Part shown: piece by piece, positions 1 through 64,000 of the stretch
How the letters are laid out: every line of letters begins with the position of its first letter
Numbering within the stretch: the stretch's first letter is position 1
DNA from: a virus
Taxonomy: Duplodnaviria > Caudoviricetes
DNA: 64,000 nucleotides
Reading direction: 5' to 3' (one strand)
IMG/VR virus record: IMGVR_UViG_3300001598_000001
Location: 1-64,000 of that record
The notes under the pieces: model-generated
Told to the model about the DNA's origin: nothing
The model's database searches: none
The model's input: only the letters and a program-made list of their open reading frames with translations
Made by a program: the position numbers and the translations under genes

Positions 1-1
1 G

Positions 2-598
2 GCTACCACTTGTTCTTCCTCTTGTGTATATAAAAAAACAAAAGTAATTAATTTAACTAATCAGGTGTTTGGACGATTAACGGTTATTTCTTCGGCAGGG
101 CCGTCAAAAGACGGACACATGTTATGAAGATGTCGTTGTTCCTGTGGAAACGAAACTTACGTAGAAGGACGTTATTTAACACGTGGACGCACTTGTTCTT
201 GTGGATCTTGTCCTGATTTACTTAAATCAGCAGGGAATAATTATATAAATAACTGATTATTGAATAAAAATATTAATTTTAAATCAGAGGTTCGTTTTGA
301 TGATTGTAAAAATAAAGTAACTTTACCATTTGATTTTGTATTATATGATCAAAATAATAATATTATTTGTTGTATTGAATATCAAGGCGTTCAACACTAT
401 ACACCCACAGGTGGCTGATTTACCGCTGATGTTGTCAAACAACAACAAAAACGAGATCAAATTAAAAGTCAATATTGTAAACATAATAATATACCTTTAT
501 ATATTATTAATTATCAAGATTTTCAAAAATTAGACGATATTTTACAAAAAATATTGGAGGAAAACAATTATGAAGACAAAAATAACTTTAAATACTAA
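2..598 (+). CDS. Homing endonuclease-like protein, 5'-partial (Cys-rich repeat + Vsr/DUF559-like PD-(D/E)XK nuclease); 3 TGA=Trp
   Basis: Frame 2 reads LTNQVFGRLTV..HML[TGA125]RCRCSCGN..RGRTCSCG, with TGA at the conserved W of WxCxCxCG, then LPFDF..IEYQGVQHY..RDQIKSQYC..IPLYII. Other TGAs at 254 and 416; TAA at 596. Missed by the ORF track. Confidence 0.85.
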
Positions 599-776
599 TA
601 CTAAATTAGTAGAAGCAATTCAAAATAGATTGAGATTAAATAATGGTTATTGTCCTTGTGCGTTAATTAAAAACGATGATACAAAATGTATGTGTAAAGA
701 ATTCAGAGAATCCATCGAAGAAGGTCCTTGTCACTGTGGATTATATATTAAAGAAAGGGTCAAAGACAATGCTTAA
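570..776 (+). CDS. Ferredoxin-thioredoxin reductase catalytic subunit-like small Fe-S protein
   Basis: GYCPC, CMC and CHCGLY motifs; GGAGG RBS. Confidence 0.8.
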   Translation: MKTKITLNTNTKLVEAIQNRLRLNNGYCPCALIKNDDTKCMCKEFRESIEEGPCHCGLYIKERVKDNA

Positions 777-1302
777 GTATTTTGACTCTGCTATAGTCTT
801 TGCTGAATTTCCAGATGAAGTTTGTTTAGCAGTAAATATTACGAATTGTCCTGGAACCTGTGAAAAATGTTCTGAACCTTGGCTAAGAGAAAATATTGGA
901 GTAGAATTAACTAATAATGATATTGATCAACTAATTAGTCAACATCCTGACATTACTATGTTTGGTTTAATGGGTGGAGATTCTGATCATTTAGATTGCT
1001 GTCGTATAGCTAATTATATTCACTCTACTTATCCTTATATTAAAGTGGGTATGTATAGTGGATTAGATTATTTAGATAGTAAATTATTAGATGTATTGGA
1101 TGCATATAAAATTGGCCGTTTTATTTCACCAAAAGGACCTATAGAAGATTGATTTAAAACTAATAATGGAGTTTTGAATTTTCCTTGATCTAATCAATTA
1201 TATTTTGAAAAAATTATAAAAGATGATCAAATTTATTGGCAAAACTCTACTTATAAGTTTAGAGATAAACCATTGGGCGATCCAAGTAAATATATTATTT
1301 AA
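769..1302 (+). CDS. nrdG: Anaerobic ribonucleotide reductase activating protein (radical SAM); 2 TGA=Trp
   Basis: VFAEFPDEVCLAVNITNCPGTCEKCSEPWL (CxxxCxxC), LMGGD, YKIG. Reading through TGA 1150 and 1186 restores the SNQ C-terminus and ends at TAA 1300. Confidence 0.88.
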
Positions 1303-1385
1303 CCGTCTATTAGTTTTTTTACTAAAAACGATTTTGGTTATAAATTTGATCGAAGTCGGGGTATGTTATATAGGAGGAAATAGTT

Positions 1386-1592
1386 GTGATAGAAAATAAA
1401 CAACCTACAATAACGTCTATTCATAAAATTAATTTAACTATGATTAATACATTATGTGGTCACTATATTACACAATGTAAATCAAGAGTAGACGCACAGC
1501 TTATCAAAGCTTTATCTAAAGATTTAATTACCATATTAGGTATTAAAGACGATAAAGATTATGGAGTTATTCCTATTGATAATATAAAATAA
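1386..1592 (+). CDS. hypothetical protein
   Basis: GTG start with GGAGG RBS. Confidence 0.6.
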   Translation: MIENKQPTITSIHKINLTMINTLCGHYITQCKSRVDAQLIKALSKDLITILGIKDDKDYGVIPIDNIK

Positions 1593-1597
1593 TTTTA

Positions 1598-1622
1598 AAT
1601 CACCTTGTATAGGTGATTTTTT
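1598..1622 (+). terminator. Intrinsic terminator overlapping the next promoter
   Basis: AAATCACC-TTGTATA-GGTGATTT + T run. Confidence 0.65.
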
Positions 1623-1633
1623 CCCATTATAAT
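1605..1633 (+). promoter_or_regulatory. CCCAT-type sigma70-like promoter (probably leaderless transcript)
   Basis: TTGTAT-17bp(..TTCCCAT)-TATAAT; ATG 8 nt downstream, no RBS. Confidence 0.75.
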
Positions 1634-1641
1634 GTTAATAT

Positions 1642-2247
1642 ATGAAAACAAAACTTAAAACAATAAAATACACAAAAAACAAAGTAATTAATACTATTAT
1701 TATGATCATGATGTTTTTAACACCATGGTTTTATGTTTTTATTAATCAAGATTTACCACAATCTATATCGGTTACTTATTATACTAATACAGGTCCTTTA
1801 TTTATTATAACTATGACTGGCACAGGATTCTTGTTATTAAGCGAAAATACAAGTAATATTTTTGAAACAATATTAAACGTTGTTATTTTCCTTGCTGATT
1901 TAGGTTTGGTTTGTAATCCTTGTCAACCAATTGATTTTAATGGCACTGGTGTTTACGGTGTTCTTAGTTTACCAATGCCACTATGCTCACAAATTCATAA
2001 TATTTGTACGACTATATTCTTTATAGGATTATTTATTAAAATGGGAATATTTTTAAATCTTAAAACCAAACTTAAAAACTGTGTAATTTATGTAATGATA
2101 ATAATGGTAACTATTTTATTATTATTGTGTTTATTATCGTCGTGGTTATCTGTGTGTCCTTATAAAACTTGGCTAATTGAAACTTTGTGTATTTCAAATA
2201 TTGGAATTGGCTGGCTTTTATATATTAGTGCCATGGATAAAGAATAG
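1642..2247 (+). CDS. Multi-pass membrane protein
   Basis: About 6 hydrophobic segments. Confidence 0.7.
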   Translation: MKTKLKTIKYTKNKVINTIIMIMMFLTPWFYVFINQDLPQSISVTYYTNTGPLFIITMTGTGFLLLSENTSNIFETILNVVIFLADLGLVCNPCQPIDFNGTGVYGVLSLPMPLCSQIHNICTTIFFIGLFIKMGIFLNLKTKLKNCVIYVMIIMVTILLLLCLLSSWLSVCPYKTWLIETLCISNIGIGWLLYISAMDKE

Positions 2248-2248
2248 T

Positions 2249-2277
2249 TTGAATATTATAATTTTTCCCATTATAAT
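2249..2277 (+). promoter_or_regulatory. CCCAT-type promoter
   Basis: TTGAAT-17bp(..TTCCCAT)-TATAAT. Confidence 0.75.
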
Positions 2278-2347
2278 AATAATATATAAAATATTGAATA
2301 AAAGCTACATTTTATTCGGAAAGGTGAAAAAAGAGGAATAAAAGATT

Positions 2348-2800
2348 ATGACAAGTAAAGAAGTGTTAAAATCTCAAGGACATTATGCTTTATATGAATT
2401 ATTTACAGATGTTGCAAAATTAAGAAATAATACTCATCCAACAGACAATGAAAAAGAGTTATTTAATATTATTGAGAAAGATTTAGAAGAATATGAAATA
2501 GCAAAAAATCTAATTCACGAATTACGTATTATTTTGTATGGTGATGATGAAGACTGTAAAACTGATTTTGATATAATTAGAAAATGTCAATTGAAGATTC
2601 TTAACTATTTAGAAGATAAAGCAAAGAGATTAGGAACTGAAAAACTTGTTAGAGAAGTTTTAATTCAAATTGCTAAAATGATAGCAAGTGGAGAAATACC
2701 AAATGAAGTTTATGATAAATATTTAAGTGAAACACCAATAGGTTTTATGCCCGAAGAAGATTTAATTAAATATTTAACAAAAGATTTAAAGGAAGAATAA
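2348..2800 (+). CDS. hypothetical protein
   Basis: 150 aa ORF with RBS. Confidence 0.7.
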   Translation: MTSKEVLKSQGHYALYELFTDVAKLRNNTHPTDNEKELFNIIEKDLEEYEIAKNLIHELRIILYGDDEDCKTDFDIIRKCQLKILNYLEDKAKRLGTEKLVREVLIQIAKMIASGEIPNEVYDKYLSETPIGFMPEEDLIKYLTKDLKEE

Positions 2801-2848
2801 TCATGACAAATTAAATTAGGATATTTTTATCCTATTTTTTATAAAGAG

Positions 2849-2877
2849 TTGTTTTTTGGAAAAATTACCATTATAAT
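2849..2877 (+). promoter_or_regulatory. CCCAT-type promoter (ACCAT variant)
   Basis: TTGTTT-17bp-TATAAT. Confidence 0.65.
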
Positions 2878-2933
2878 ATATATAGAATAAAATTGCCTTT
2901 TTATTTGGTAATTTTATAGAAAGGAAGTACTAC

Positions 2934-5345
2934 ATGCTTATTAATGAAATGATCGGGCAAAACATCAAAGCTCGTGTTAAATTACATAATTATAGATATC
3001 CGCGTTCTGGTGTTCAAGAATCTGGTTTTGCGATAGTCATTTTTGATGTTGTTTCTGTTTTAGAAGGACAAATGCCTGAAGATTTTATTTATGGTAATAA
3101 TGATGGTAAAATAGAATATCAACTTACTGCTGTTGGAACTATGCCTAAAATTGAACGTAATCAAGAATATGTTTTACAAGGTACTTGGGATATAGACAAA
3201 AAATGGGGACCTCAATGTAAAGTGGATTTTGTTAGAATGGATTATAATTTCAATTCTATAGATGATCAATGTAAGTTCTTTTCGTTCTTCATGACAGATA
3301 ATCAAATTAAGTCTTTATTCGATATTTATGATGATCCAGCATCTTTGTTAGAAAATCAAGATATAGAATCTTTAACTAAAATTAAAGGTATTGGTCCAGC
3401 AACTGCTCGAAGAATGTGTGTAAAATATGAACAATGTAAGGATAAAGGACAGGCTTATATTCAATTAAAAGCTTTTGGTCTTACTAAAACAGCAATTGAT
3501 CGTATTGTTGCGGCATACGGATCTCCAGATGAAGCGGCGGCACAAGTTAACGCTAATCCATATGTATTAATTAAACATGTTAGAGGTTTTGGCTGGTTAA
3601 AAGCTGATACGGCTGCTCGTGCTAGAGGTTTTGCTCGTAACTGTAAAGAAAGAGTAATGGCTTATATACAATACTATTTAGATATTCAAGCTGAAAGTGC
3701 TGGTAATATTTGGGTTACTATTGATGATTTAATGACCAATGTTATAAACGAATGTTCTCCTTTAACCAAAGATCAATTAAGCGTTTGGATTAAAGAAGTT
3801 ACTGCATCACAAAATCGTTTTGAAGAACTTTATGTAAATTATTTACAAGATCCTGGTACTGAATTCCCATTATTAATGTATTGTCAAGAAGGACGTAAAA
3901 TAGGCCTATCTTATTATCGTTTATTAGAACGTAAAATCGCAGATGAGCTTCAAAGATTACAAGAAGGTCCTCATAATTTACAATATGATAAACACATTTG
4001 TGAAAGTATGATCAATGAAGTTGAGGAAGAACAAGGATATGAATATACAGAAGAACAAATTAAAGCAATTTATGACATGCTTAATTCTAATGTTATTGTG
4101 TTAACTGGTTCAGCTGGTACAGGTAAAACCACCACACTTAAACCTGTTATTCGTATTTTAAGATATTATGGTATGTTTGTTAGTCAATGTGCCTTAGCTG
4201 GTCGTGCTTCAAGTTTATTAAGTGAAGTTACAGGTTTAGAAGGTAAAACTATTCATAGGTTATTGGGTTATATTCCTGAAACAGAAAAATTTGCACATTC
4301 TGCTACTAATCCATTAAAATCAGATGTTGTTATATTAGATGAAACTTCCATGGTTGGAGAAGAATTATTCTTATCATTATTAAAAGCAATTAAGACAGGA
4401 TCAAAATTGATTATGTTAGGAGATATTAAACAATTACCTCCAATTAATGTTGGTAATATCTTAAATGACTGTATTCGTTCAGGATATATTACAGCTGATG
4501 TATTAACTCAAACCCATAGACAAGCATTAAAAAGTGGAATCGTATCTCAATCTGTAAAAGTATGCTCTGGAGAATCTTTGTGTAAAAATGATTTCTATGG
4601 AGAGGAAATTCGTGGAGAATTACAAGATTTTAAATTAATTGCGGCATATGATTTAACTGAAATTCAAATGAAAATAATTGAAGAATTTAGACGTTTATAT
4701 TTCAAAGAACATATTGCATTAGATAAAATACAAATTATTATTCCAACTCGTGTTCGTGGAAACAACTCATGTAGAGTTATTAACAGCATGATTCAAGAAA
4801 TTGTAAACCCTGGTTTTAGAAATGATAGTGCAGTAGTTGAATATAATGAAAATGGTTTCAAATATACTGTCACATACAAAGTAAATGATAGAATTATTGT
4901 TAATCGTAATAATTACCACGCATTAAATGTCGACGGAGATGAAGTTGCAATATTCAATGGTAATTTAGGAATAATTAAAAAGATTTACAAAGATCACATG
5001 ATTATTGAACTACCTGATCAAGGAGAAGTTATTTTAGAAAGAGAAGATTGGTGGAATATTGGATTAGCTTATGCTATTACAGTACATAAACTTCAAGGAT
5101 CACAAGCTCCTTATACAATTGTTGCAATAGATTCATCTTCTTATGCATTATTATCACGTGAATTAATTTATACAGCAATTACACGTGCTACCAAATATTG
5201 TACATTAATCACTCAACCAAAAATGTTAAATTTGGGAATAAAAATTAGTGCCATTAAACAAAAACAAACATGGTTACAACAAGAATTATTTAATTTATAT
5301 ATAAGAACTCAAGAAAGAGACATTAAATATGGTGAAAATAACTAG
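2934..5345 (+). CDS. recD2: RecD2-like SF1B DNA helicase
   Basis: HhH IKGIGPATA, Walker A GSAGTGKTT, TIHRLLG, Walker B ILDETSMV, GDIKQLPP, YAITVHKLQGS, IYTAITRA. Confidence 0.93.
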   Translation: MLINEMIGQNIKARVKLHNYRYPRSGVQESGFAIVIFDVVSVLEGQMPEDFIYGNNDGKIEYQLTAVGTMPKIERNQEYVLQGTWDIDKKWGPQCKVDFVRMDYNFNSIDDQCKFFSFFMTDNQIKSLFDIYDDPASLLENQDIESLTKIKGIGPATARRMCVKYEQCKDKGQAYIQLKAFGLTKTAIDRIVAAYGSPDEAAAQVNANPYVLIKHVRGFGWLKADTAARARGFARNCKERVMAYIQYYLDIQAESAGNIWVTIDDLMTNVINECSPLTKDQLSVWIKEVTASQNRFEELYVNYLQDPGTEFPLLMYCQEGRKIGLSYYRLLERKIADELQRLQEGPHNLQYDKHICESMINEVEEEQGYEYTEEQIKAIYDMLNSNVIVLTGSAGTGKTTTLKPVIRILRYYGMFVSQCALAGRASSLLSEVTGLEGKTIHRLLGYIPETEKFAHSATNPLKSDVVILDETSMVGEELFLSLLKAIKTGSKLIMLGDIKQLPPINVGNILNDCIRSGYITADVLTQTHRQALKSGIVSQSVKVCSGESLCKNDFYGEEIRGELQDFKLIAAYDLTEIQMKIIEEFRRLYFKEHIALDKIQIIIPTRVRGNNSCRVINSMIQEIVNPGFRNDSAVVEYNENGFKYTVTYKVNDRIIVNRNNYHALNVDGDEVAIFNGNLGIIKKIYKDHMIIELPDQGEVILEREDWWNIGLAYAITVHKLQGSQAPYTIVAIDSSSYALLSRELIYTAITRATKYCTLITQPKMLNLGIKISAIKQKQTWLQQELFNLYIRTQERDIKYGENN

Positions 5346-5362
5346 AAAGGAAAATAAAAATT

Positions 5363-5923
5363 ATGAGTATATATGTTACTTCAGACTTACATTTTAATCA
5401 CAAAAATATTTTACAAATGTGTCGTACTCAATTTGAAACTATTGAAGAGCACAATAATTATATTATTCAACAATATAATTCTGTAGTGAAAAAAGATGAT
5501 TTAGTTTATATTTTAGGGGATATTGGTTTTACACCATATAATAAATTAACTCCTTTAATTAAACAATTAAATGGACGTAAAATATTAATCATTGGTAACC
5601 ATGATCAAGGCAAAGATAATGAATATCTTGCTATGGGATTTATTGAAGTAATACGCCACCCTGTTTATTATAATAGTAATATTATATTAAGTCATTTTCC
5701 TGTTCGAGAGGGATATGACAATCCATGGATATATAATCTACATGGTCATTTACACAATAACGAACTGACTTTAAAAAATTATATTAATGTTAATATAGAA
5801 TTAAATGATTATAAACCATTAGATTTAAAAGCATTGGCTGAGGAAATTGATGCAAAAACACCAAAATCGCGTTATCAATCTTTCGGTCAAGAATGGTTTT
5901 ATGAGTATTATAAAAACAAATAA
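5363..5923 (+). CDS. Calcineurin-like metallophosphoesterase
   Basis: SDLHFNH, LGD, GNHD, SHFP, HGHLH. Confidence 0.9.
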   Translation: MSIYVTSDLHFNHKNILQMCRTQFETIEEHNNYIIQQYNSVVKKDDLVYILGDIGFTPYNKLTPLIKQLNGRKILIIGNHDQGKDNEYLAMGFIEVIRHPVYYNSNIILSHFPVREGYDNPWIYNLHGHLHNNELTLKNYINVNIELNDYKPLDLKALAEEIDAKTPKSRYQSFGQEWFYEYYKNK

Positions 5924-5937
5924 AGATAAGTATTTAC

Positions 5938-5966
5938 TTGTCTTTTTGTTTTATTCCCATCATAAT
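5938..5966 (+). promoter_or_regulatory. CCCAT-type promoter overlapping a terminator hairpin
   Basis: TTGTCT-17bp(..TTCCCAT)-CATAAT; hairpin AAGATAAGTA/TACTTGTCTT. Confidence 0.7.
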
Positions 5967-5994
5967 AATAATATAGAAAGAAGGAATAAAAATT

Positions 5995-6279
5995 ATGAAA
6001 ATTAATCATGTAACTACTGTTATTAGACAAACAATTACAAAAAAAGGAATCGTTTTTGAAGAAAGAAATTCTGTTAGCACAAGCTCAGTATATTTCAAAA
6101 TCTATTCTAGTTCAAGAAAAGAATCATTATTATTTAGAATTGCTGATCATTATACTAAAGCTGATGTTATTACTTTAAGAATTGATCACAAATCTACAGA
6201 AAAAAGTGTCGAAAATTTTGTCATTAATCGTATTAATGATTTAAGAAAAAGATCTTTAAAAAATATTTTAGGAATGTAA
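5995..6279 (+). CDS. hypothetical protein
   Basis: 94 aa ORF with RBS. Confidence 0.7.
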   Translation: MKINHVTTVIRQTITKKGIVFEERNSVSTSSVYFKIYSSSRKESLLFRIADHYTKADVITLRIDHKSTEKSVENFVINRINDLRKRSLKNILGM

Positions 6280-6281
6280 TT

Positions 6282-6506
6282 ATGGGAAACAAAACAAACA
6301 TTATTGAAGCTTCTGGTATAGTTGTTGAAATTTTACCAGGAGAAGTATTTAAAATTAAATTAGACGAAAATGACGTTATTATTTATGGTCATATTAGTGG
6401 TAAATTACGTATTAATCATATACGTATTTTACCTGGTGATCATGTCAGAGTGGAATTATCAGTATATGATTTAACGCAAGGTCGTATTATATACAGAGAT
6501 AGATAA
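6282..6506 (+). CDS. infA: Translation initiation factor IF-1
   Basis: IEASGIVVEILP, HISGKLRINHIRILPGDHVRVELSVYDLTQGRIIYR. Confidence 0.95.
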   Translation: MGNKTNIIEASGIVVEILPGEVFKIKLDENDVIIYGHISGKLRINHIRILPGDHVRVELSVYDLTQGRIIYRDR

Positions 6507-6516
6507 GGAGTTATAT

Positions 6517-7737
6517 ATGAAATTAAACACGAGTATTTTTTTAGATGGAGCTTCTAATACTCCTTTAGACGCAAGAGTACTACAAGCAATGTTGCCTTAT
6601 TTAAATGAAAAATTTGTAGGGAATAGTTCTTCTACCCATGATCATGGAATTAGAGCATCAGAAGCAGTTGAAAATAGCAGACATAAAATTGCCTCGATTT
6701 TTGGTGTTGAAGATGATTCAATTATTTTTACGTCTGGTGCATCAGAATCTAATGCTATGGTTATTGAAGGATTGGGATTACACGAACTTAGTAAACCTAT
6801 TAAACAAAGAAAAATGAATATTGTTGTTTCTGCTTATGAACACGATTCAATATTGTCAGCTTGTAAAATATTACAATCTATAGGTTTTAATATTACTTAT
6901 ATATATCCAGATAATAAAGGACATATTACTCCCGAAATAGTGGAAAAATCGCTTAAAAATGACACTTTATTAGTATGTATTATGGCGGTTAATAATGAAA
7001 TAGGCACTATGAATAATATTTATGAATTGGGTGAAATTATTCATAAAAATAATTCTTTATTTTTATGTGATCTTACTCAAGCCATCAGTTATGGCGGTAG
7101 TAGTTTAGACGTTACTAATAGATATTATGGCGCAGATTATTATAGTTTTAGTGGACACAAAATATATGGTCCATTAGGAGTAGGATGTTTAATTCGTATT
7201 AATAATGCCCCAATTTATGGTATTATCGCACCAGGAGCACAAGAAAGGGGTTTACGTGGTGGAACATCTAATACACCAGGAATTGTTGGTTTAGGAGAAG
7301 CTATACAATTAATATCAGAAAATAGCTATAGTAAACATTATACAGCATTATATACATATCTTATGAGTCAGATACAATTATTACCAGATCCATTGAATAA
7401 AATTAGACCTACTGTAATTCCTGATCAATTAAATATTGTGAATTTAAATTGTTATCCATATTTACCAAGTTTTCAGTTAGCTAACAGTTTTGCTATGAAT
7501 GGTATTAGCTGCAGTGCTGGATCTGCTTGTAATACTACTGGAGAATCAATAGTTGGTTCTCATGTGTTGCGTTCAATCAAAGTGCCAGAAGAAGAAATAT
7601 CTTCTTGTATTCGATTATCATTTACTCGAGACACAACTACGCAAGATATTGATGCTTTTTTAGATACGTTGCTAATTTTATACAATGATAATTGTACAAT
7701 GTTGTCTAATTTAGACTCTATAAACAATGAAGGATAA
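6517..7737 (+). CDS. iscS: Cysteine desulfurase (IscS/NifS family)
   Basis: FTSGASESN, MAVNNEIG, PLP Lys in SGHKIYGPLGVG, RGGT, catalytic SAGSAC. Confidence 0.92.
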   Translation: MKLNTSIFLDGASNTPLDARVLQAMLPYLNEKFVGNSSSTHDHGIRASEAVENSRHKIASIFGVEDDSIIFTSGASESNAMVIEGLGLHELSKPIKQRKMNIVVSAYEHDSILSACKILQSIGFNITYIYPDNKGHITPEIVEKSLKNDTLLVCIMAVNNEIGTMNNIYELGEIIHKNNSLFLCDLTQAISYGGSSLDVTNRYYGADYYSFSGHKIYGPLGVGCLIRINNAPIYGIIAPGAQERGLRGGTSNTPGIVGLGEAIQLISENSYSKHYTALYTYLMSQIQLLPDPLNKIRPTVIPDQLNIVNLNCYPYLPSFQLANSFAMNGISCSAGSACNTTGESIVGSHVLRSIKVPEEEISSCIRLSFTRDTTTQDIDAFLDTLLILYNDNCTMLSNLDSINNEG

Positions 7738-7740
7738 AAT

Positions 7741-8451
7741 ATGTTTGAGAAAACTAGAAGTGTATTAAATAAGATTTTTAAAGACATAACCAAGCTTAAA
7801 ATAATTTGTGATATTATTTTGCAAGTTATTTTATTTGGATTATGTGTTTTTAACGTTATTTCTAATATTCATAATGTTATTAAACTTATCATCTATATTT
7901 GTATGCTTATATGTTCTATATTTTGGCTTATTTATTTAATTAATTTTTATTTAGGTAAATTGACTTCTGCTTACCAAAAAGCTAAGAAAAAAAATATTCA
8001 ACACATAGTTAAATATTTAAGATTAGGATATAGATTCGTTTTAGTAATTTTAGCCTGTGTTGACATATTTAGCGGTGCTTTATCAGGATTTGCTTTGTTT
8101 GTGCCTATCTTTACAGTAAGTAGTTATATATTAAAAATTATAATTACTGTAATATCAGAATTAATAGCTTATTATATTAGCTTATTATCTTTAGCGATCG
8201 AAGAAGATTTAAAACCAATTACCAATACTATTGATAATATTAAACATCCTTTGTATGGTATTTCTAAAGCATTATCAAAAGATAAAAACGAAGATCGAGT
8301 AGTAGACGCCAAAACACAAGATAAATTAGATATTATTAATTCACTTGCTGATGAGTGGAAAATAAATGTAGAAAAGAAAAAACAAGAACGAAAAGAATTA
8401 AGAAAACAATTTATTAAAAAAGTTTTCGGTAAAAAAACGGAGGAGGAATAA
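7741..8451 (+). CDS. Membrane protein with basic C-terminal tail
   Basis: 4 hydrophobic segments. Confidence 0.75.
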   Translation: MFEKTRSVLNKIFKDITKLKIICDIILQVILFGLCVFNVISNIHNVIKLIIYICMLICSIFWLIYLINFYLGKLTSAYQKAKKKNIQHIVKYLRLGYRFVLVILACVDIFSGALSGFALFVPIFTVSSYILKIIITVISELIAYYISLLSLAIEEDLKPITNTIDNIKHPLYGISKALSKDKNEDRVVDAKTQDKLDIINSLADEWKINVEKKKQERKELRKQFIKKVFGKKTEEE

Positions 8452-8454
8452 ATC

Positions 8455-9334: not shown

Positions 9335-9354
9335 TAATAAGGAGGATATCATTA

Positions 9355-9816: not shown

Positions 9817-9819
9817 TAT

Positions 9820-10122: not shown

Positions 10123-10124
10123 TT

Positions 10125-10409: not shown

Positions 10410-10524
10410 AAAATGGGATCCAGAAACTCTTTAATAATTTATTTAATATAAATTATTACATATAGTTAAAAAAGCTCTCTACGGGGCTAAAAATGCGTAT
10501 TACGAGCATTGTAGGAGGAAAGAT

Positions 10525-55140: not shown

Positions 55141-55590
55141 ATGGAAGCTAGTCAAATTATTTCACTAGTTATAAGCATTTTATCTTTTTTCGGAATAGGC
55201 ACTATATTTGCCCAATTTTGAAAAGATAAATATGAAAAAAAACAACAAGAAACTCAACAAGCTAAAGAACAACAAAAAAGACAAAAACAAGAAGAAATGC
55301 GTGAAGTAATTCATCAAGAAAATGTTGAGATTATCAAACGTATTGAAAAAATTGAAAGAAATACAGATTTGTCTCTTGAAGCTGATGTATTAGCTTTAAG
55401 ATGTAATATGAAAGCTATTATGGAAAGATGTAAACACCAAGGTTATTCAGACATTGGAGATAAATCAACTATGAAACAATTAAGGAAAAAATATGAAGAA
55501 CTTGGTGGTAATGAATTTAAAAATTACGTTGATCATTGGTGTAATTTAGTAAAAACATTACCAGATAGTAAAGAAGAAGGAGGAAAATAA
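55141..55590 (+). CDS. Single-TM coiled-coil protein (holin-like); 1 TGA=Trp
   Basis: N-terminal TM, TGA 55219, YEELGGN motif. Confidence 0.65.
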
Positions 55591-55592
55591 TC

Positions 55593-57212
55593 ATGGAAAC
55601 TAAAAAATTATATTTTGATATTGATGCTAGTACCATAGATATTAAGCCTCTATTACGTAAAGATTTTTTAGAGTTGTCAATGAAAGCTATCAGTAGTGCA
55701 AATCCTAATAGAAACAATTCTTGGTTTACTAGAGAATCTATGGAAAAATCTATTGACACCTTTAGAAACAAACCAATTTTAGGTTATTTTGAAAACGGAG
55801 ATTTTGTTAGTCACAACGGTGAATGAACCAGTGATTCCGAAACTCAAATGGAATATTGGGACACATTAGGTAAAAAAGGAGAAAGAATTTTAGGACTTAT
55901 TCGTAGTGAAGATGAAGTTAAAATCGTTGAAGATAAAAACGGATTATCTTGAATTTGTCTTTCTTGTGCTTTATGAACTCAATATAGTTTTAAACAAGTT
56001 AAGCGTTTATTAAAAGATGCAAAACGAGCAAAGCAAACAGGTGAAGCTACTAAAAATGTTTCGGTAGAAGTAGATATCACTGATTATGAAATGCTTGAAA
56101 ACGGCGTTATGAAAATTAACGCGTTTAATTTAATCGGTATTACTATTCTTGGTTCTAGAAATGGTGTAAAAGTAGAACCAGGTATTGAAGATGCTGAATT
56201 ATCTGTTGTTGATATCATGGGTAGAGAATTATATGAAAGACAGGCAAATAGTATAAGACTTGCTTATGAAAGATTAGACAACAAAGTACAAAAGGAGGAA
56301 TTTTCTCAAATGGATAACGAATTAAAAACAGAAAACATTGAACAACCAGTTGTTCCAGAAAATTCTGATGTCATTGTTAACGATGTTATAGTAGAAGAAC
56401 CAAAAGAAGAAAACATTGTTATCGAAGAAGCTGAATCCACAGAACCTGTTTCTGAAGAACCAAAAGCAGAAGAAGTTATCATGGAAGAAAAAACTGAATC
56501 AATTGAAAATGTTGAAACAGATAATTCTGTAAACGATTCAGAAAACGTTCCAGAAGAATCTACAGTTATTGTAGAAGAAAAAACTGAAGAAATTAATGAA
56601 CATCTAGAAGAAAACAACGATTGTCATTGTGAAGAACATGATGAAAATCCCGATGAAGAAGAAAAAGATGACGAAGATGAAGATGAAGATGAAGAAGAAA
56701 TAGAAGAACCAAAAGAAGAGGAACATGAAGAAGAAGAAATTTGCCCTGGATGTGGTAAAAATCCTTGTGAATGTGAAAAACATACTTGCGAAGAGCAAGT
56801 AGATTCTGTTGATTCTATTGAAGTCATTAATTGGGAAGAAAAATATGGTATTCTAGAGCAAGAATTTAACACTTTAAAAGAACAATATGAAAATGTTGTT
56901 AAAGATTTAAGTATTTATAAAAAAGCTGAATTTTTAAGTCATGCTAAAGAATTATTAATTCAATCAAAGATTACTGAAAAAGCTGTTGAAGATTTTTACA
57001 CAGCATGTGAACAAGATGAAATTACTAATTTAGATGATTTAAAAGTTAAAGTTGCTTTGTATATGCTTGATAAAACTATTAAAATTGAAGAAGTTGGTTT
57101 TGAAACTTCTGCAATTATTACACCAGACACTAAATCTGCTTTTGAAACAAACAAAGGCAAAGAAGCAAAGAAGACAAATTGGTCCACTTTGCAAGAATAT
57201 ATTGGTAAATAA
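55593..57212 (+). CDS. Prohead protease / scaffold fusion, 539 aa; 3 TGA=Trp
   Basis: NRNNS, NKPILG, DFVSH, SVEV, GITILG..EPG, then an acidic scaffold region; TGA at 55824, 55950, 55974. Confidence 0.8.
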
Positions 57213-57231: not shown

Positions 57232-57260
57232 TTGCATTTTTTATAAAAACCCAATATAAT
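57232..57260 (+). promoter_or_regulatory. CCCAT-type promoter for the capsid operon
   Basis: TTGCAT-17bp(..ACCCAA)-TATAAT. Confidence 0.75.
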
Positions 57261-57447
57261 ATTATTATATTAGAGCTAGGAACTCGTTAAACTCATCTCG
57301 TATATTTTATTTATACGTATATTTATGGATTAAAACATTAATTATATTAATTATTATTTTTTATAGAGCCGAACTATAAAAAATTTTGTATTATATATAA
57401 TAATGATTTTAATATTTTTAAAAAATTTTTTAAAAGGAGAAACAATT

Positions 57448-57987
57448 ATGGCATATGTTTTTAAAAGAGGCAAAATGGCTAGTGGCGTTTTAGATGTCAT
57501 GTTAGCTAATGCTGTTTGTACAAGCGGTGTAAAAGATGGTTCTTTACTAGTTCTTGGAAACTTAGCTTCAGATACTACTTACAGTGCTACAGGTGTTGAA
57601 TATGACACTTATGTTGCTACTGCTCCAGCTGCAGCAACAAACGAAGTTGTTATTTGTGATTATGCTGGAATTTCAGAAGGCATTATTTCAGGTAACGAAT
57701 ATAAAATGGGAAATAAATTATATGATTTAGAAGTACCAGCAGGTGAAATCTTCAGAGTTAGAAGATTAGGATTACATGATAAATTCTGGTTAGGCGAACA
57801 TAACTTTGTTGGAAATTCTCCAGTTGTTGGCGAATATGCAACTGCAACTGCAGGTGACTGCAGACATACTCCAGCTGCATCATTACCAGCATCAGGTTAT
57901 GCAGTTAAAATTTTATTATCAGAAGATTTAACAGCAGGTATGGCTTCAAAAGGATTAATTTATCTTTGCGAAGTTGTCCAATTATAA
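57448..57987 (+). CDS. Head decoration / capsid-associated structural protein
   Basis: Lies between protease and capsid; Ala/Gly/Thr-rich; AAGGAG RBS. Confidence 0.7.
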   Translation: MAYVFKRGKMASGVLDVMLANAVCTSGVKDGSLLVLGNLASDTTYSATGVEYDTYVATAPAAATNEVVICDYAGISEGIISGNEYKMGNKLYDLEVPAGEIFRVRRLGLHDKFWLGEHNFVGNSPVVGEYATATAGDCRHTPAASLPASGYAVKILLSEDLTAGMASKGLIYLCEVVQL

Positions 57988-58006: not shown

Positions 58007-58498
58007 ATGAAAAAATATTTTGGATACACAAAAAGCTCTGATGAAGTTTTTAATTCATTAGTTGAAAATACCCTTGAATTAGCTAGAGAAGCTCACGAAG
58101 GTAAAAAATCAGCAAATTATGCTGAAAAGAATTCTGACTTACTTGTTGCTATGGGTAAGAAAGCTATTGAAGGTACTAGATTTGAAGCTGATTTTGAAGC
58201 TGAAGGTTTAGCTATCTACAATAAGCCAATGGTAAAATCTAACACCACAGTTAGAGAAAACTTCAACGCAGTTATTGCACAAGTTGTTACTGCAATAGTT
58301 CCTGAAGTTGTCAACGATACTTTCTCACAATTTATCGCTGAAGTTCACCAAGTTGGTTATGGTGAAACTGCAAGATTCATTATTGAATCTAACGATTTAT
58401 TCAAAGTCAATTCTAAAGCTGAAGGCGTTAGAAAAGGCGTTGATCAACCTATGTTTGATGATGAAATTACTGTAAATGCAAAACCAGTCACAGTCGAT
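58007..58498 (+). CDS. Major capsid protein, exon 1
   Basis: FIAEVHQVGYGETARF; ends AKPVTVD at the 5' splice site. Confidence 0.85.
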
Positions 58499-59001
58499 TA
58501 ACCTGTTTACTGTCAAGTAAACTAACCAGTCGGCATATACAGAAATGTGTATGTAGTGCTAAGAGTTATTAGTCTTAGCCAACACTATCTTAATTGCTGG
58601 AAATCCCTAAAGCTATATAAACTACAACGTAAAACCTATTATTAGGTTTAAGCGTGAATGTTACGAAAGTAGAAAAAATTATATAGATGGCGCATGGTCA
58701 AATCCTAAACGCATATCCAATCATAAAATGGGAAATCAGCATCCAAGCTCGAAAGAGAAGGTTCAACGACTATCTCCCGTGAGGAGAGTAGGATCAAGTG
58801 ATCCGAAAGAGATAGGCCTTAACGTGTCATGACGAAGGATATAATATAGTCTATGCTTATATGAGAATATAAGAAGTTCACTAAAGAACTGTGTGAAAAA
58901 TAACGAATTCACATGAATTATGAAATATTTGAATATATGAATAAATAATCTTTATATATATTACAATTAAAAATAAAATAAACCCACTATAAAATGAAAT
59001 A

Positions 59002-59240: not shown

Positions 59241-59834
59241 TGTTGTATTGATTGGTACCCATTTGCTGCTGGAATTTTCGACATGGGTAACTTTGCCCTA
59301 AAGATCGGTAGATCTTTCATGGCATACATTTTCTTAAAGGCTGTTAGAGGTATGACAGCTGCAACTAGTGCTTATGGTGCTGCTTATACTGTTGCTGGTG
59401 TTACACCAACTTTATTTGGTACTTTAAGAGAAAGAGTATCAGCTGCTAATGGTGGTATGAATGTTATTGCCATTGGTACTGCTGTTGCTTTAAGCCAATG
59501 TTCATTAGGTGGAAACTATCAAGTTGAAATTGGTGAAGAAATGAACAAAGTTGGATACTTAGATCAATATCTTGGTGTTCCATTAATTGGTTTAAAGAAC
59601 GTTTTAGTTCCAGGAACTACTAACACTACTGCTCAACTAGCTTTACCAGATGACAAGATTTATATGATTCCTGTCGGTGGAAGCAGACCAGTTAAGATCG
59701 TCTTCGAAGGCGACGAAGTTAGCGTTATGTTCAACCCAGAAACTACTTCTGACAAGAGATATGGATTATCTGTTGAATTAAGAGTTGGTGTTGAAGCTGT
59801 CTTAGGTGCGAAGTACGGAACTATCACTTTATAA
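59241..59834 (+). CDS. Major capsid protein, exon 2 (spliced product 361 aa)
   Basis: CCIDWYPFAAGIFDMGNF..GYLDQYLGVPL..PVKIVFEG. Confidence 0.85.
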   Translation, partial: CCIDWYPFAAGIFDMGNFALKIGRSFMAYIFLKAVRGMTAATSAYGAAYTVAGVTPTLFGTLRERVSAANGGMNVIAIGTAVALSQCSLGGNYQVEIGEEMNKVGYLDQYLGVPLIGLKNVLVPGTTNTTAQLALPDDKIYMIPVGGSRPVKIVFEGDEVSVMFNPETTSDKRYGLSVELRVGVEAVLGAKYGTITL

Positions 59835-59835: not shown

Positions 59836-59864
59836 TTGTAAAATTATAAAAAACCCGTTATAAT
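59836..59864 (+). promoter_or_regulatory. CCCAT-type promoter (CCCGT variant) of the endonuclease gene
   Basis: TTGTAA-17bp-TATAAT. Confidence 0.7.
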
Positions 59865-59961: not shown

Positions 59962-61497
59962 ATGATAACCGTTGATAAAGAAGACATAGTAGAATATTAT
60001 ATTAATCAAAACCATTCAGTCCAACAAACAGCTGAACATTTTAATATTAATTGTAAAACTTTTTTTGGATGGCTACACAGATTAAATATTCACAAAGACA
60101 AAACATTAAGTCAACAAAATGCACAAAAAGCATTAAAAGATAAGCACATTATGGAAAATAATCATCCAACTAAAGATGAATTATATCAATATTATATTGT
60201 TCAAAATCATTCTGAAACAGAATGTTGTCAATATTTTTCAGTATCACGTTCGTCTATTCAACGTAGGATTAAAAAGTATCAATTAAATAAAGATACACAA
60301 CAAATTCAAAAATGTACCCAACATACTGTTTTAAATAAATATGGTTATAATTTTGTTTTACAAGATCCACAAATACAAAAAATAAATAAAGCACGACTAC
60401 AAGAAAAATACGGTGTACAAAATATTGCACAGCAATATATTCAACATTTAGATATATGGAATGATAAAGATAAATTTGTAAAATTTTTAAAACAGCAAAA
60501 TGTAAAAATGACAGCAGTAAGTTTGGGTAGATATTTTAATGCTCATATAAGTACTTGTTTGAGAAAAATCCATAGTTTGGGGTTAGAAAATCTTATTGAT
60601 ATTAAGCCTGCTACATCGCAATATGAACAAGAAATTATTGATTTATTACATAATGAGTTTAATATTGATAATATTATTCAAAATGATAGAACAGTATTAA
60701 ATGGGAAAGAAATTGATATTTATTTACCAGATTATAATTTTGGAATTGAATTTAATGGTGAATATTGGCATTCAGAAATTGGTCACCCTCATTATGCTGA
60801 AAGAAATGGTAGATCCACTTATCACCAACAAAAATCTTTAGAGGCAGAACAAAAGAATGTTTTTTTATTTCATATTTTTGAACATGAATGGTGTGAACCA
60901 TTTACAACTGTAAATCCTAAATTTACAAATAGTCGTAAAAAAATTATTAGTCGTTTAAGATCAATATTACATTATAATGAAAAGACTATAGGTGCTCGTC
61001 AATGTGTAATAAAAGAATTAAGTTATGATGAAAAAACACAATTTCTAGATTGTAATCATTTTCAAGGTAATGATATATCTAGTAATTATTATTTAGGATT
61101 ATTTTATCAAAATGAGTTGGTTAGTTGTATGACTTTTGGTAAATCTAAATACAAAAAATATACCTGGGAACTAAGTAGATTTTGTAATAAAGAAAATTAT
61201 CAAATTCTTGGTGGTGCCTCAAAGTTACTTAAATATTTTGTAGATAATAAAATGTGTAAAAATGATATTTTAGTTTCTTACAGTGATATTACTAAAACTA
61301 GTGGAAATTTATATAAAACATTGGGTTTTACTAATACTCAAATTAATGATCCTAATTATTGGTGGGTTAATTTTAATACTGGTGATGTAAGAACTAGATA
61401 TCAAGAACAAGCTGCTGGTGAAGTAGCGCGTATGCATAATAAAGGATATTATAGAATCTGTGATTGTGGTACAAAGACATGGATTTTGAAAAAATAA
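59962..61497 (+). CDS. Free-standing Hef-like homing endonuclease (HTH repeats + PD-(D/E)XK nuclease + GNAT/Mom-like C-terminal domain)
   Basis: EIDIYLP..GIEFNGEYWHS..FHIFEHEW; NHFQG, WELSRF, GGASKLL, SYSD, GNLYKTLGF. Confidence 0.82.
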   Translation: MITVDKEDIVEYYINQNHSVQQTAEHFNINCKTFFGWLHRLNIHKDKTLSQQNAQKALKDKHIMENNHPTKDELYQYYIVQNHSETECCQYFSVSRSSIQRRIKKYQLNKDTQQIQKCTQHTVLNKYGYNFVLQDPQIQKINKARLQEKYGVQNIAQQYIQHLDIWNDKDKFVKFLKQQNVKMTAVSLGRYFNAHISTCLRKIHSLGLENLIDIKPATSQYEQEIIDLLHNEFNIDNIIQNDRTVLNGKEIDIYLPDYNFGIEFNGEYWHSEIGHPHYAERNGRSTYHQQKSLEAEQKNVFLFHIFEHEWCEPFTTVNPKFTNSRKKIISRLRSILHYNEKTIGARQCVIKELSYDEKTQFLDCNHFQGNDISSNYYLGLFYQNELVSCMTFGKSKYKKYTWELSRFCNKENYQILGGASKLLKYFVDNKMCKNDILVSYSDITKTSGNLYKTLGFTNTQINDPNYWWVNFNTGDVRTRYQEQAAGEVARMHNKGYYRICDCGTKTWILKK

Positions 61498-61569
61498 ATA
61501 TAATATTGTACTATGCCTTCTTTATTGAAGGTGTTTTTAATTAAAAGGAAACAAAAGGAGAAAAAAATT

Positions 61570-62250
61570 ATGGCTGAAACAAAAAATACTACTGCAGTAA
61601 AAACTGCAACTACTAAAACTACTACATCTACTAAAGAAAAACAATTAGAAGAACAAGTTGCTCAATTAATGGAACAAGTTAAAATTTTAACTTCTGCATT
61701 AAATGCAACTGCACAATCTAGCAATGTTGTAACTACTCCAACAGCAGTTAACAGTAATTCAGATGTTTCTTTAGTTTATATGTCTGATAGTTTAGGTGTT
61801 ATTCGTTATGGTAATGGCATTGAATTAAATTGCACTAGATTTGGTGAAGAATTTGTCATTACTCGTTCTGCTTTCGATGAAATCGTTGGAAGATATAGAA
61901 AGTGGTTCGATGCTGGTATGTTAGCTGTCTCATATAAAAATGTTGATGTAGCTGCTGCTAAAGGTGTTAGAACTGATAAAGAATATGCTTTAAGTGCGGA
62001 AAAATTACATGATTTAGGTAAAATATCTGTTCAAGATATTGAAAAATTATGGGAAGAAAACCCTACTGAAGCACATAGATTAAGTATTGTTACTTATTTT
62101 AAGAGAAAATTTATTGAAGGTAAAGAATCTGGATTCCGTGATAGAAGCAGAGTCGATTGCTTAAATAGATTAACTAACGGTGGATTTGCTCAAGAAAGCA
62201 GAGAATTAGGTGGAGATTATAAAATCAGACCTACTAATATGAACGATTAA
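61570..62250 (+). CDS. Conserved protein downstream of the capsid gene
   Basis: AAGGAG RBS; position. Confidence 0.7.
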   Translation: MAETKNTTAVKTATTKTTTSTKEKQLEEQVAQLMEQVKILTSALNATAQSSNVVTTPTAVNSNSDVSLVYMSDSLGVIRYGNGIELNCTRFGEEFVITRSAFDEIVGRYRKWFDAGMLAVSYKNVDVAAAKGVRTDKEYALSAEKLHDLGKISVQDIEKLWEENPTEAHRLSIVTYFKRKFIEGKESGFRDRSRVDCLNRLTNGGFAQESRELGGDYKIRPTNMND

Positions 62251-62315
62251 TAATAGTATTATAAAAGATAGATTATATAACTTAAATAACTCTTGTTAAG
62301 TAGGGGGTAGAGCAA

Positions 62316-63008
62316 ATGATTTATTTTTATGATATTTTCGAACGCGCTTTCAATTTATTTGATGACCCCGACATAAGTCGTAAATATTTTTGTGACCAAG
62401 CAGGTTTTCAACATGATATGTTGGATTATTTAATTAATGGCAAAAATAAATTTACTTTCCCTACAGCTATTACAGATAAATTGGTTATTTGTGATGAACC
62501 TGAGGGACGACAAGAAATTATTGAGGGTGAAGGCACAAATACTTATGTACTAGTTACTACGCCAAAAGAGGGATCGGGTTTCACTTATCGAATTGGTGAA
62601 GAATTAGTTCAAGGACAATATATTCCAGAAACTAATTCAGTGGTTTTTCCACGCACTATTGAAGTTGGTCAAACCTGTTCTGTAACGTGGTACTATGCTG
62701 GTGCGTTTTCAGCGGACTTTTCTAATTGTTTACGTTCTGATTTTCCTATAGATGCAATAATAGAAAAAGTAATTACTATATTAGCATACGGATTATTATC
62801 AGCATGAGGAGATAAGGAAGTAGGCAGAGTATTAGAAGTTCGTAATATATTAACTGATACAGATTTTAATATGTATTCGCCAGCGAATTCGGCAAAAGCA
62901 AAAGTAGAGTGGCGAGATAAGATGAATGAAAACATGGATACCTTGATTTCGGAGTTAAATTGACGAATCATGGCTACTCCTAGAGGAGGAACTCGTTTTG
63001 GAAAATAA
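62316..63008 (+). CDS. Putative head-tail connector, 230 aa; 2 TGA=Trp
   Basis: DFNMYSPAN motif lies after TGA 62805; second TGA at 62961. Confidence 0.75.
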
Positions 63009-63357
63009 AGAATGTTTAGATACAGAAATCAGTTCAGTCTCAATTCGTTTCTCTCTAGAAGAAGAAAAGGAATGATATATTAATTTACGTGGACAATTAA
63101 TTAAATTATTGTATATGATCGAAGCGGAACAAAAGGGCGAGTGTACAGCAGATTTATGATTTTATGGATTTATGCACGAACTTACATCATCAAATTCGCT
63201 TTGTCAAAATAAATTAACAAAAGTTGTTGTAAAAATTTTTGGTTTATTTGAAGACAATAAATATAAAACCATGTCTCACGAACAAATTAAACGTCAAATC
63301 ATGGAATCGAGAGGAATTGTTGACCATTTAATTAAAGAAATGGAAAAAGAAAAATAA
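62998..63357 (+). CDS. Hypothetical protein, 119 aa; 2 TGA=Trp
   Basis: GGAGG RBS + TTG start; same frame as track ORF 63172-63357. Confidence 0.7.
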
Positions 63358-63380
63358 GTAGTACAGGGGGAAGAGCTAAT

Positions 63381-64000
63381 ATGGCACGTAAAGTTATCGA
63401 TGTTACTCGTTCTGTTGATAAATACGACATATTATCACAGACACCTAATAACTACAATTCTCAAAATTATTATTTAAAAGAATTACAAGATAAAGTTAAC
63501 GCTGAATGGAATTATCGTCCAAACAGAGTTACGGTTGAATATGAACATATTTGGGGCAGTCAGCAATATTCCCCACTCGAAGTTGTTGTACAAACTGTAA
63601 AATCAGAAAAAGGTACAGTAATTTCGGATGATTGTAAAAGTTTGGTTTTTAGAGATATTTCTGAAGACAGATTTAAAATTGGTAGTAAATTTAGATTTGC
63701 TCCTAATTTTAACAATCGTGCTGATCAAGTTCTTGGAGTCGATATTAAAAAGAATGTTGATGATATTGATGAATATGAAGATGTTTATATGGAGAATGAT
63801 GGTACATTAGTTGAAGATCTCATTCCTGTAAAATATCGTACTAATATTAAATATAAAAATGTATGGTTAGTTACAAATACTAATACAGCTAAGATGACTT
63901 CTAATGTCATCATCCAACGTTGTAATGGTACTCTTGGTAGTACTTATAAAGACAGCCAAGGAATTTCACACAGACATTATGAACCTGTTATTCAAGGCCA
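63381..64000 (+). CDS. Putative neck / head-completion protein, 3'-partial
   Basis: Open from ATG 63381 to the window end; VWLV..IIQRCN. Confidence 0.7.
   Translation, partial: MARKVIDVTRSVDKYDILSQTPNNYNSQNYYLKELQDKVNAEWNYRPNRVTVEYEHIWGSQQYSPLEVVVQTVKSEKGTVISDDCKSLVFRDISEDRFKIGSKFRFAPNFNNRADQVLGVDIKKNVDDIDEYEDVYMENDGTLVEDLIPVKYRTNIKYKNVWLVTNTNTAKMTSNVIIQRCNGTLGSTYKDSQGISHRHYEPVIQG

Follow-up and report, generated by a model that had tools for sequence, protein, structure and literature searches.

The window analysed here comprises positions 1 to 64,000 of the IMG/VR virus record IMGVR_UViG_3300001598_000001 (64,000 nucleotides), the first part of the genome of a 131-kb complete tailed phage from gut or rumen. 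In this phage, in-frame TGA codons are read as tryptophan (Trp) and are unevenly distributed: a 41-kb block contains none, while the genes for the phage's own RNA polymerase, its terminase, portal and tail contain many. It is likely that the phage partitions its TGA-to-Trp code by stage of infection, in a low-GC host of the Bacillota that itself uses the standard code, with a suppressor tRNA, tRNA(UCA), as the switch.

The source record is a single contig of 131,489 bp with 29.4% GC and a 34-bp terminal overlap; its completeness is 100% according to CheckV, and its IMG/VR class is that of direct terminal repeats. Encoded are a large terminase, a portal, a 3911-aa (amino acid) tape-measure protein, tail proteins, a DnaE-type DNA polymerase, DnaB, a primase, an Erf-like annealing protein, RecD2, NrdD, NrdG, several homing endonucleases and a 966-aa YonO-like RNA polymerase. 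The phage is probably virulent. This genome, referred to as G000 where it needs a label, is compared with two related complete phage genomes from IMG/VR, the recoded G001 (144.9 kb) and the standard-code G002 (154.7 kb), as well as with three further standard-code relatives: the partial genome G003 and two whole-phage contigs, G004c4 (130 kb) and G005c1 (138.7 kb), that were binned into metagenome-assembled genomes (MAGs).

Decoding and distribution of in-frame TGA codons

Open reading frames (ORFs) cover 91.7% of the genome under code 4 compared with 78.3% under code 11, and with TGA as sense the median ORF is 165 aa long instead of 126 aa. Reading TAG or TAA as sense gives a far smaller gain in coding density. 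No gene in the entire genome terminates at TGA, which extends what an earlier reading of the window, made from its letters alone (the sequence-only reading), had seen for the stops it checked: all are TAA or TAG.

The identity of the inserted residue is clear from the relatives. At the alignment columns where this phage has TGA, Trp is found at 44 of 81 sites in G002, 45 of 88 in G004c4 and 46 of 90 in G005c1, against a background of 1.1%; no other residue occupies more than 10 sites, and Gly at most 4. Within the window, 31 of the 39 TGA sites can be aligned, and 28 of these 31 are a TGG-encoded Trp in at least one standard-code relative. Further, the Trp content of the two compartments evens out when TGA is counted as Trp (13.8 versus 12.6 per 1000 codons). 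Decoding of TGA as Trp is therefore well supported, as the sequence-only reading had proposed: the homologues show Trp at these columns, not Gly or random residues. The same residues exclude code 25 (Gly) and selenocysteine.

The sequence-only reading had listed 38 in-frame TGAs in 13 genes of the window; the 13 genes are the same, but the count is 39. The motifs it quoted at expected Trp sites are all present, LxRCRCSCG in an HNH endonuclease, VxACSRNAGKS in the large terminase and SFxN in the RNA polymerase. Its TGA-free block also stands. Between 1386 and 42440 there are 70 credible genes with 12,038 codons, 0 TGA and 166 TGG, and all Trp codons of RecD2 (8/8) and of the 828-aa PcfJ-like protein (11/11) are TGG. 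When genes are re-called with TGA as sense and TGA and TGG are counted per gene genome-wide, the partition is confirmed: the remaining genome outside the block holds 167 TGA and 148 TGG (Fisher p=9e-41), and a second TGA-free stretch is found at genome positions 116533-124521 (0 TGA, 35 TGG). A greedy gene caller places five TGA-bearing ORFs inside the block, but these are antisense or lack a ribosome-binding site. Four of the five give way to TGA-free ORFs whose ribosome-binding site, of the AGGAGG or GGAG type, is clear, while the fifth (18278-18520, 80 aa) is ambiguous, with only a weak TGA-free alternative at 18187-18381.

At 69.4 per 1000 codons, out-of-frame TGA is equally frequent in the two compartments; the depletion thus concerns the reading frame alone and does not reflect mutation bias. 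Nor does the partition simply follow transcription units. In the replication operon, TGA-free genes alternate with three TGA-bearing ones (a homing endonuclease, a 165-aa protein and an exonuclease), and therefore the partition works gene by gene at the level of translation. The homing endonucleases are TGA-biased, with TGA/TGG counts of 8/1, 3/0 and 2/0. As a side observation, A follows an in-frame TGA in 44% of cases and C in 5%, while after TGG in the same genes the values are 27% and 17% (chi-square p=0.0014). A leaky TGA context can be rejected, as the weak-termination context TGA-C is not enriched.

Comparison with the relatives reveals how the TGA-free state is kept. Among Trp columns conserved with a standard-code relative, the block and replication genes have 1 TGA and 67 TGG, while the other genes have 53 TGA and 71 TGG (p=1.8e-11). 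The orthologues of the block and replication genes in G001 have 0 TGA at 43 shared Trp columns, while in the other genes, whether a column has TGA or TGG in one recoded phage says almost nothing about the other phage (cells 27, 18, 20 and 31). At the gene level, TGA status agrees in 26 of 30 orthologue pairs between them. However, these two phages are not sisters. A tree of seven core proteins (3693 columns) gives (G001,G005c1),(G000,(G002,G004c4)) with all branches supported at 100/99 or more, and an AU (approximately unbiased) test rejects a clade of G000 and G001 (p=6e-5), a grouping that was chosen for testing after a quick tree had been seen. Thus, there were either two or more origins of recoding or a single loss, and both recoded lineages show the same partition. 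Judged by this comparison, selection keeps the early and replication genes TGA-free; neither mutation bias nor gene age on its own accounts for their state.

Gene age is nevertheless the alternative that has to be weighed here. It would explain the block as recently acquired standard-code DNA that is too young for TGG-to-TGA changes, and several observations fit: for the majority of the 70 block genes neither G001 nor G002 has a homologue, the GC content at third codon positions is slightly higher in the block (0.181 versus 0.136), and the TGA-free homing endonuclease at 59962-61497 has no homologue in the relatives either. Many block genes are lineage-specific accessory genes, so that recent acquisition may contribute to their lack of TGA, and to this extent they weaken the case for selection. 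For the conserved genes, on the other hand, gene age is already largely refuted, as vertically inherited block and replication genes have TGA at 1 of 68 ancestral Trp columns, compared with 53 of 124 elsewhere, the shared columns of G001 repeat this pattern, and the two recoded lineages are not sisters. As a general explanation it is improbable. A further possibility is that TGA is avoided wherever translation must be efficient or accurate, regardless of timing, because suppression would be leaky and carry a cost. The putative capsid and scaffold genes behind a strong promoter are TGA-free, as this would predict, but they tell little since they have only 0-2 Trp codons each. The abundant virion proteins (portal, tail) are TGA-rich while low-copy replication enzymes have none, and we find it unlikely that expression level accounts for the partition.

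The pattern could also arise without any switch if the host itself used code 4 (or code 25) and the low TGA usage of the block were a matter of codon usage. The low GC content (29%) would fit such a host, and one of the candidate MAG bins belongs to an order of small-genome Bacilli (0.8-2.4 Mb) and is an incomplete bin from which prfB was not recovered. However, the standard-code relatives G002, G003, G004c4 and G005c1 stop at TGA in 24, 5, 32 and 9 ORFs, respectively. Related phage contigs are found in four bins (Clostridium sp. CAG:343, an uncultured Bacilli bacterium, Gemmiger and an alphaproteobacterial bin); the rpoB frame is free of internal stops, and hence of in-frame TGA, in 4 of 4, and prfB is present in 3 of 4. 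The codon usage of the block, 166 TGG and 0 TGA, is the reverse of that of a code-4 organism, Gly occupies just 4 of 81 TGA columns, and the cultured phages with a related polymerase infect standard-code Bacillota. A code-4 host is therefore hardly credible, and the host very likely uses the standard code, judging indirectly from the relatives of the phage and the candidate bins; that a free phage contig falls into a MAG bin is in itself weak evidence for a host, which tells against leaning on the bins.

The block reads identically under both codes. It can thus be translated in a standard-code host, as the sequence-only reading had suggested, and this property is kept by selection. A host among the Bacillota is suggested by the strong AGGAGG ribosome-binding sites and by tblastn searches in which all cultured phages with a homologous polymerase infect Bacillota. 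DNA searches add little: in 200 genomes from the order of one candidate bin we found short, low-complexity AT-rich matches and that bin's own phage contig, and no usable CRISPR-like match, and a megablast search of 20 kb against a phage collection gave nothing beyond AT-rich chance matches.

Early-type promoters, the suppressor tRNA and a proposed mechanism

The genome has four perfect sigma-70-type promoters (TTGACA-N16-18-TATAAT, 12 of 12 positions), where 0.49 would be expected; in 200 shuffles this number was never reached. One, TTGACA-N18-TATAAT with CCCATTATAAT, is found at 42604-42633(-). It overlaps the 3' part of the recoded gene 42421-43116, and the first TGA-free gene begins 164 nt further on, so that it marks exactly the block boundary. 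Another (genome 72312-72340) lies 208 nt upstream of tRNA(UCA), a third is ahead of the replication module (108806), and the last is within the block. These four are part of a larger family of sites, TTGnnn-N12-CCCAtTATAAT (the CCCATTATAAT motif), which has 28 matches in the genome compared with 6.2+-2.4 in shuffles; about 20 of the 28 are intergenic and point in the direction of the following gene.

The first gene after such an early-type promoter is TGA-free in 13 of 14 cases, and the exception is the polymerase operon. In the rightward half of the block these promoters are found at 1623, 2267, 2867, 5956, 10844, 15131 and 16867. Further to the right, the promoter of the polymerase operon (46488-46516(-), TTGCAC-N17-TATAAT with CCCAA) lies 74 nt upstream of the operon, and a divergent sigma-70-type promoter of the class that matches at 11 of 12 positions (46827-46855(+)) precedes the TGA-free ORF 46864-47694(+). 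Early-type promoters also stand ahead of the putative capsid genes (57232-57260(+)) and of a homing endonuclease (59836-59864(+)), and these genes are TGA-free. Beyond the window there are seven more sites of the class, and from most of the region 47.8-107 kb the signature is absent. Recognition by a sigma factor of the phage itself could account for the CCCA at the extended -10 position.

The sequence-only reading had suggested looking beyond the window for a tRNA-Trp(UCA), a tryptophanyl-tRNA synthetase (TrpRS) or a release factor, and only the tRNA was found. It is 95 nt long and lies at genome 72548-72642, 8.5 kb past the window (ARAGORN; Rfam tRNA model 59.9 bits). Its acceptor is of the Trp type, with A1-U72, GGGG/CCCC, G73 and an encoded CCA, and the acceptor AGGGG...CCCCU followed by G is common to the tRNA(UCA) of this phage and of G001 and to the ordinary tRNA-Trp(CCA) of the standard-code G002. 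In G001 the homologous tRNA(UCA) also has a long variable arm (about 27 nt), together with a type-II-like D arm. On the comparative evidence we take the tRNA(UCA) to be a Trp decoder that is not a canonical tRNA-Trp. Six-frame searches of the genome gave no domain of a release factor (RF-1) or of TrpRS.

Some other elements surround this tRNA. A GTCCAA sequence is found within the variable arms of the tRNA(UCA) of both this phage and G001. A ROOL RNA (RF03087, 233 bits; genome 72654-73177) begins 12 nt 3' of the tRNA and probably shares its perfect sigma-70-type promoter; as a component of the switch it is not supported, as none is found beside the suppressor tRNA of G001. On the other side, at genome 72221-72291, there is a tRNA-like gene (Rfam 54.7 bits, 31% GC) that ARAGORN missed, with the anticodon loop UCAGUAA, a C at position 33 and an apparent AGU anticodon.

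We suggest the following mechanism. The TTGnnn-N12-CCCAtTATAAT promoters that stand before TGA-free genes and before tRNA(UCA) would be read by the host RNA polymerase. Genes needed before the suppressor tRNA accumulates, that is those of the 41-kb block together with the genes for the helicase, the primase, the DNA polymerase and the Erf-type annealing protein, would be held TGA-free by the purifying selection that is evident from the comparison above. The tRNA(UCA) would then be charged by the host TrpRS, which is presumed since the phage encodes neither a TrpRS nor a release factor. Only after the tRNA is present could the TGA-bearing mRNAs, encoding the RNA polymerase, terminase, portal, tail and tape-measure proteins and the homing endonucleases, be translated in full. 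As the polymerase operon has an early-type promoter but 11 TGAs in three genes, its product would be delayed at translation and not at transcription. Finally, by analogy with YonO of SPbeta, the polymerase would transcribe at least part of the late region.

Some observations do not sit easily with this mechanism. The variable arm of the tRNA(UCA) is 22 nt, not the 4-5 nt of a tRNA-Trp. Arms of this length are usual in Ser, Leu and Sec tRNAs but not in tRNA-Trp, which makes charging by TrpRS less certain. The tape-measure gene contains 28 TGAs that would all have to be read efficiently against the host RF2. Two further points tell against the polymerase step: the CCCATTATAAT motif is at background level in G001 and G002, i.e., it is lineage-specific, and a search for 8-mers enriched upstream of late genes gave the ribosome-binding site alone and no late promoter motif.

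The recoded RNA polymerase and a proposed gating of late transcription

The polymerase operon consists of a small first gene of no known family (46031-46414(-); 2 TGA, 0 TGG), the gene of the 966-aa YonO-like single-chain two-barrel RNA polymerase (43119-46019(-); 7 TGA, 7 TGG) and a third gene (42421-43116(-)) with 2 TGAs at codons 12 and 137, both upstream of the embedded promoter. The polymerase matches PF05183 (Pfam RdRP) with 32.8 bits (cut-off 23.8, E=4e-8) and phrog_8308 with 4e-89, and it aligns to SPbetaL2 with 27% identity (5e-31, tblastn); 24 Bacillus phage records and other Bacillota phages were matched. In its catalytic motif, DADFDGD at 546-552, the residues D546, D548, D550, G551 and D552 are invariant across four relatives.

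The TGA codons of the polymerase are at 335, 376, 450, 488, 661, 882 and 944, and 6 of the 7 sites are Trp in standard-code relatives. Under the standard code the protein ends at codon 334, upstream of the catalytic motif, so that its synthesis in a standard-code cell depends on the suppressor. The claim of the sequence-only reading that the polymerase needs the code switch is thereby borne out. For the idea that this polymerase serves the late genes there is a precedent, as YonO transcribes the late structural and lysis operon of SPbeta (PMC5467207), and by this analogy the polymerase of the window would transcribe late genes and plausibly add a second layer of timing.

How general such a dependence is can be seen from polymerase relatives at 45 IMG/VR loci. 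G001 is the only one of them that is TGA-recoded, and its polymerase has 7 TGAs, all at Trp columns of G000. Three further loci, L077, L089 and L102 (including IMGVR_UViG_3300029705_000055), form a TAG-to-Gln lineage with 67% polymerase identity. In this lineage the terminase, the portal and two neighbouring genes have 30 TAG versus 68 CAA/CAG (31% of 98 Gln codons; 22-38% per gene), while the polymerase has a single TAG (codon 20, in the conserved N-terminus) versus 41 CAA/CAG. Going by these codons, every recoded lineage found would have a suppressor-dependent polymerase, while the density of recoded codons varies widely. Apparent recoding of the polymerase only, in relatives of 45% identity (G003, L006-L008 and others), was rejected: the TGAs there are an N-terminal over-extension and a true stop.

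The sequence-only reading went further and suggested that the switch gates the whole late transcription programme. This is not upheld. Within the TGA-free block there is a complete sigma-70-family factor (19037-19891(-); phrog_351 6e-52; Pfam Sigma70_r1_2, r2, r3 and r4, i.e., regions 1.2, 2, 3 and 4) that could drive middle or late transcription, early-type promoters precede the TGA-free putative capsid genes and the replication module, and, as described above, no late promoter was found. It can therefore be argued that the recoding of the polymerase is incidental: the sigma factor and the host polymerase would control late transcription, and the switch would gate translation only. This is a serious possibility, nearly as easy to believe as to doubt. 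Besides the sigma factor and the promoters it can draw on the TGA share of the polymerase, 7 of 14 Trp codons, which equals the late-gene mean of 53%, so that the polymerase appears tolerant of TGA and not specially enriched in it. The polymerase of the TAG lineage is poor in TAG compared with the head genes, and the standard-code relatives run the same polymerase without any gate. All these points weigh against a polymerase gate.

Other evidence is harder to reconcile with incidental recoding. All three recoded lineages have a suppressor-dependent polymerase (7 TGA, 7 TGA and 1 TAG at codon 20), the polymerase operon is the sole TGA-bearing exception among 14 promoter-proximal genes, and YonO is the late-gene polymerase of SPbeta. 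From this it can be speculated that the switch and the polymerase form a two-layer feed-forward timer that evolved more than once, in which the polymerase mRNA, made from an early-type promoter, awaits the tRNA, and the late mRNAs made by the polymerase need the tRNA again. We put this forward tentatively, and the timer is on balance rather doubtful.

A further motif reminiscent of a polymerase is in the tape-measure protein, whose gene (genome 76554-88289) is the one with 28 TGAs. At residue 1322 the protein has RDP...GDYDGD, a motif similar to RxP...DxDGD, and its N-terminal about 2100 aa have no counterpart in the sister phages. Between the polymerase and this N-terminus BLASTP gives 16.5 bits, a similarity at the motif level that is not significant, and sequence searches of the PDB were negative both for the polymerase and for residues 1-1700 of the tape-measure protein. 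A polymerase module in the tape-measure protein, if real, would change who transcribes the early genes, and the motif is thus one more point against a gate on the whole late programme.

Other features and comparison with known systems

The window begins with an HNH/homing endonuclease (2-598(+); phrog_559 9e-32; 3 TGA, 0 TGG) and an NrdG-like activase (676-1302(+); a weak match to phrog_626, 8e-4, with CxxxCxxC in the translation; 2 TGA, 2 TGG). The rightward half of the TGA-free block (1386-16833(+)) encodes the RecD2 helicase (2934-5345), a phosphoesterase, a class-V aminotransferase and many small ORFs. The leftward half (17322-42440(-)) contains a DprA-like gene, two PcfJ-like genes (30764-32224 and 32349-34835) and many ORFs of no assigned function. 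Just upstream of promoters, at about 14950-15060 and 41030-41100 of the window, there are GC-rich alternating purine-pyrimidine tracts (ACGCACGCGCACGCG-type) in a genome of otherwise 29% GC.

To the right of the polymerase operon, an SbcD/Mre11-like exonuclease (47818-49053(+); phrog_284 6e-57; 1 TGA) is followed by the large terminase (50207-52126(+); phrog_2 1e-17), with 5 TGA and 6 TGG and Trp at 5 of 5 TGA sites in at least one standard-code relative. Next come a head-module gene of no assigned function (52197-52766(+); 3 TGA, 0 TGG), the portal protein (52796-54628(+); phrog_2739 1e-22), with 6 TGA and 7 TGG and Trp at 5 of 6 TGA sites in all three standard-code relatives, and two head-module genes at 55141-55590(+) (1 TGA) and 55593-57212(+) (3 TGA). 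The TGA-free genes after the early-type promoter are 57403-57987, 58007-58501 with 59283-59834, 59962-61497 and 61513-62250, all (+), and two recoded virion-module genes (62316-63008(+) and 62998-63357(+); 2 TGA each) follow.

One of these, a phrog_4088 gene that is probably the capsid gene, is split into 58007-58501 and 59283-59834 by an insert of about 780 nt, while G001 and G002 have an uninterrupted gene of 361-366 aa. No Rfam intron family matched the insert. The TGA-free homing endonuclease 59962-61497, with its own promoter, lies directly downstream of the split gene. Beyond the window and within the virion module, a tyrosine recombinase/integrase (genome 70184-71191) has 5 TGA and 1 TGG, with 4 TGA in G001 and 6 TGG in G002. 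In temperate recoded phages, integrases are reported to be TGA-free; the reverse pattern here suggests a late function and not lysogeny.

Recoded phages were studied by Borges et al., reportedly published in Nat Microbiol in 2022. The preprint describes TGA-recoded 'Agate' phages, with a lineage of about 127 kb in a clade of 154+-27 kb, from the guts of cattle, pig and tortoise, with Firmicutes hosts and standard-code relatives of >90% nucleotide identity (10.1101/2021.08.26.457843). TGA occurs there in structural genes and not in DNA-replication genes, an intron endonuclease is strongly TGA-biased, and in the model proposed, standard-code early genes and a suppressor tRNA come before the translation of recoded late genes. 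This model agrees with what the sequence-only reading took as established, i.e., recoding biased toward late genes in gut phages. Our phage shares with Agate the change of TGA to Trp, the genome size, the animal gut, a probable Firmicutes host, standard-code relatives, TGA in structural but not in replication genes, a suppressor tRNA and TGA-biased homing endonucleases. It is probably within or next to the Agate clade, judged by its match in size, code, habitat type and gene pattern. The differences are the recoded polymerase operon and the single sigma-70-type promoter class for TGA-free genes and the tRNA found here. A phage RNA polymerase is not mentioned in the preprint. The Mgcod tool, too, is built on the use of codes in blocks (10.1101/2022.06.29.495998), and between this tool and the model of Borges et al. 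the observation and most of its interpretation are already known.

The 'code change module' of the Jade phages contains a tRNA(UCA), a TrpRS and RF1 (Borges et al., 10.1101/2021.08.26.457843). As in this phage, switch hardware readable in both codes is ahead of the recoded genes; here, however, it consists of the tRNA only. No paper that links YonO-type polymerases to recoding was found in our literature search. The crAss polymerase is a giant virion protein, while the polymerase of this phage is a 966-aa YonO-type protein encoded outside the virion module. Phages of the crAss-like and Lak groups (10.1101/2022.06.29.495998; PMC9523058) show the same separation into standard and recoded blocks, with recoded late genes and a suppressor tRNA. 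However, they mostly change TAG to Gln and have Bacteroidota hosts, while here TGA is changed to Trp and the Shine-Dalgarno sites are Bacillota-like.

YonO of SPbeta (PMC5467207) is, like the polymerase of this phage, a single-chain two-barrel enzyme with a DxDGD loop, and the homology is found by tblastn and PF05183, but SPbeta uses the standard code. Phage P23-45 has a virion RNA polymerase fused to its tape-measure protein and a second, non-virion polymerase (10.1101/2022.12.01.518664). The giant tape-measure protein with its RxP...DxDGD-like motif and the separate two-barrel polymerase resemble this arrangement, at the motif level only.

Set against these systems, what is new is that the phage's own RNA polymerase lies behind the code switch; as the general principle is published, the gain is incremental. 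The genome is a clean case with unusually good controls, as four standard-code sisters and two independently recoded lineages, one TGA and one TAG, belong to the same family, and with it the idea that recoding sets the timing of a phage's own RNA polymerase can be tested directly.

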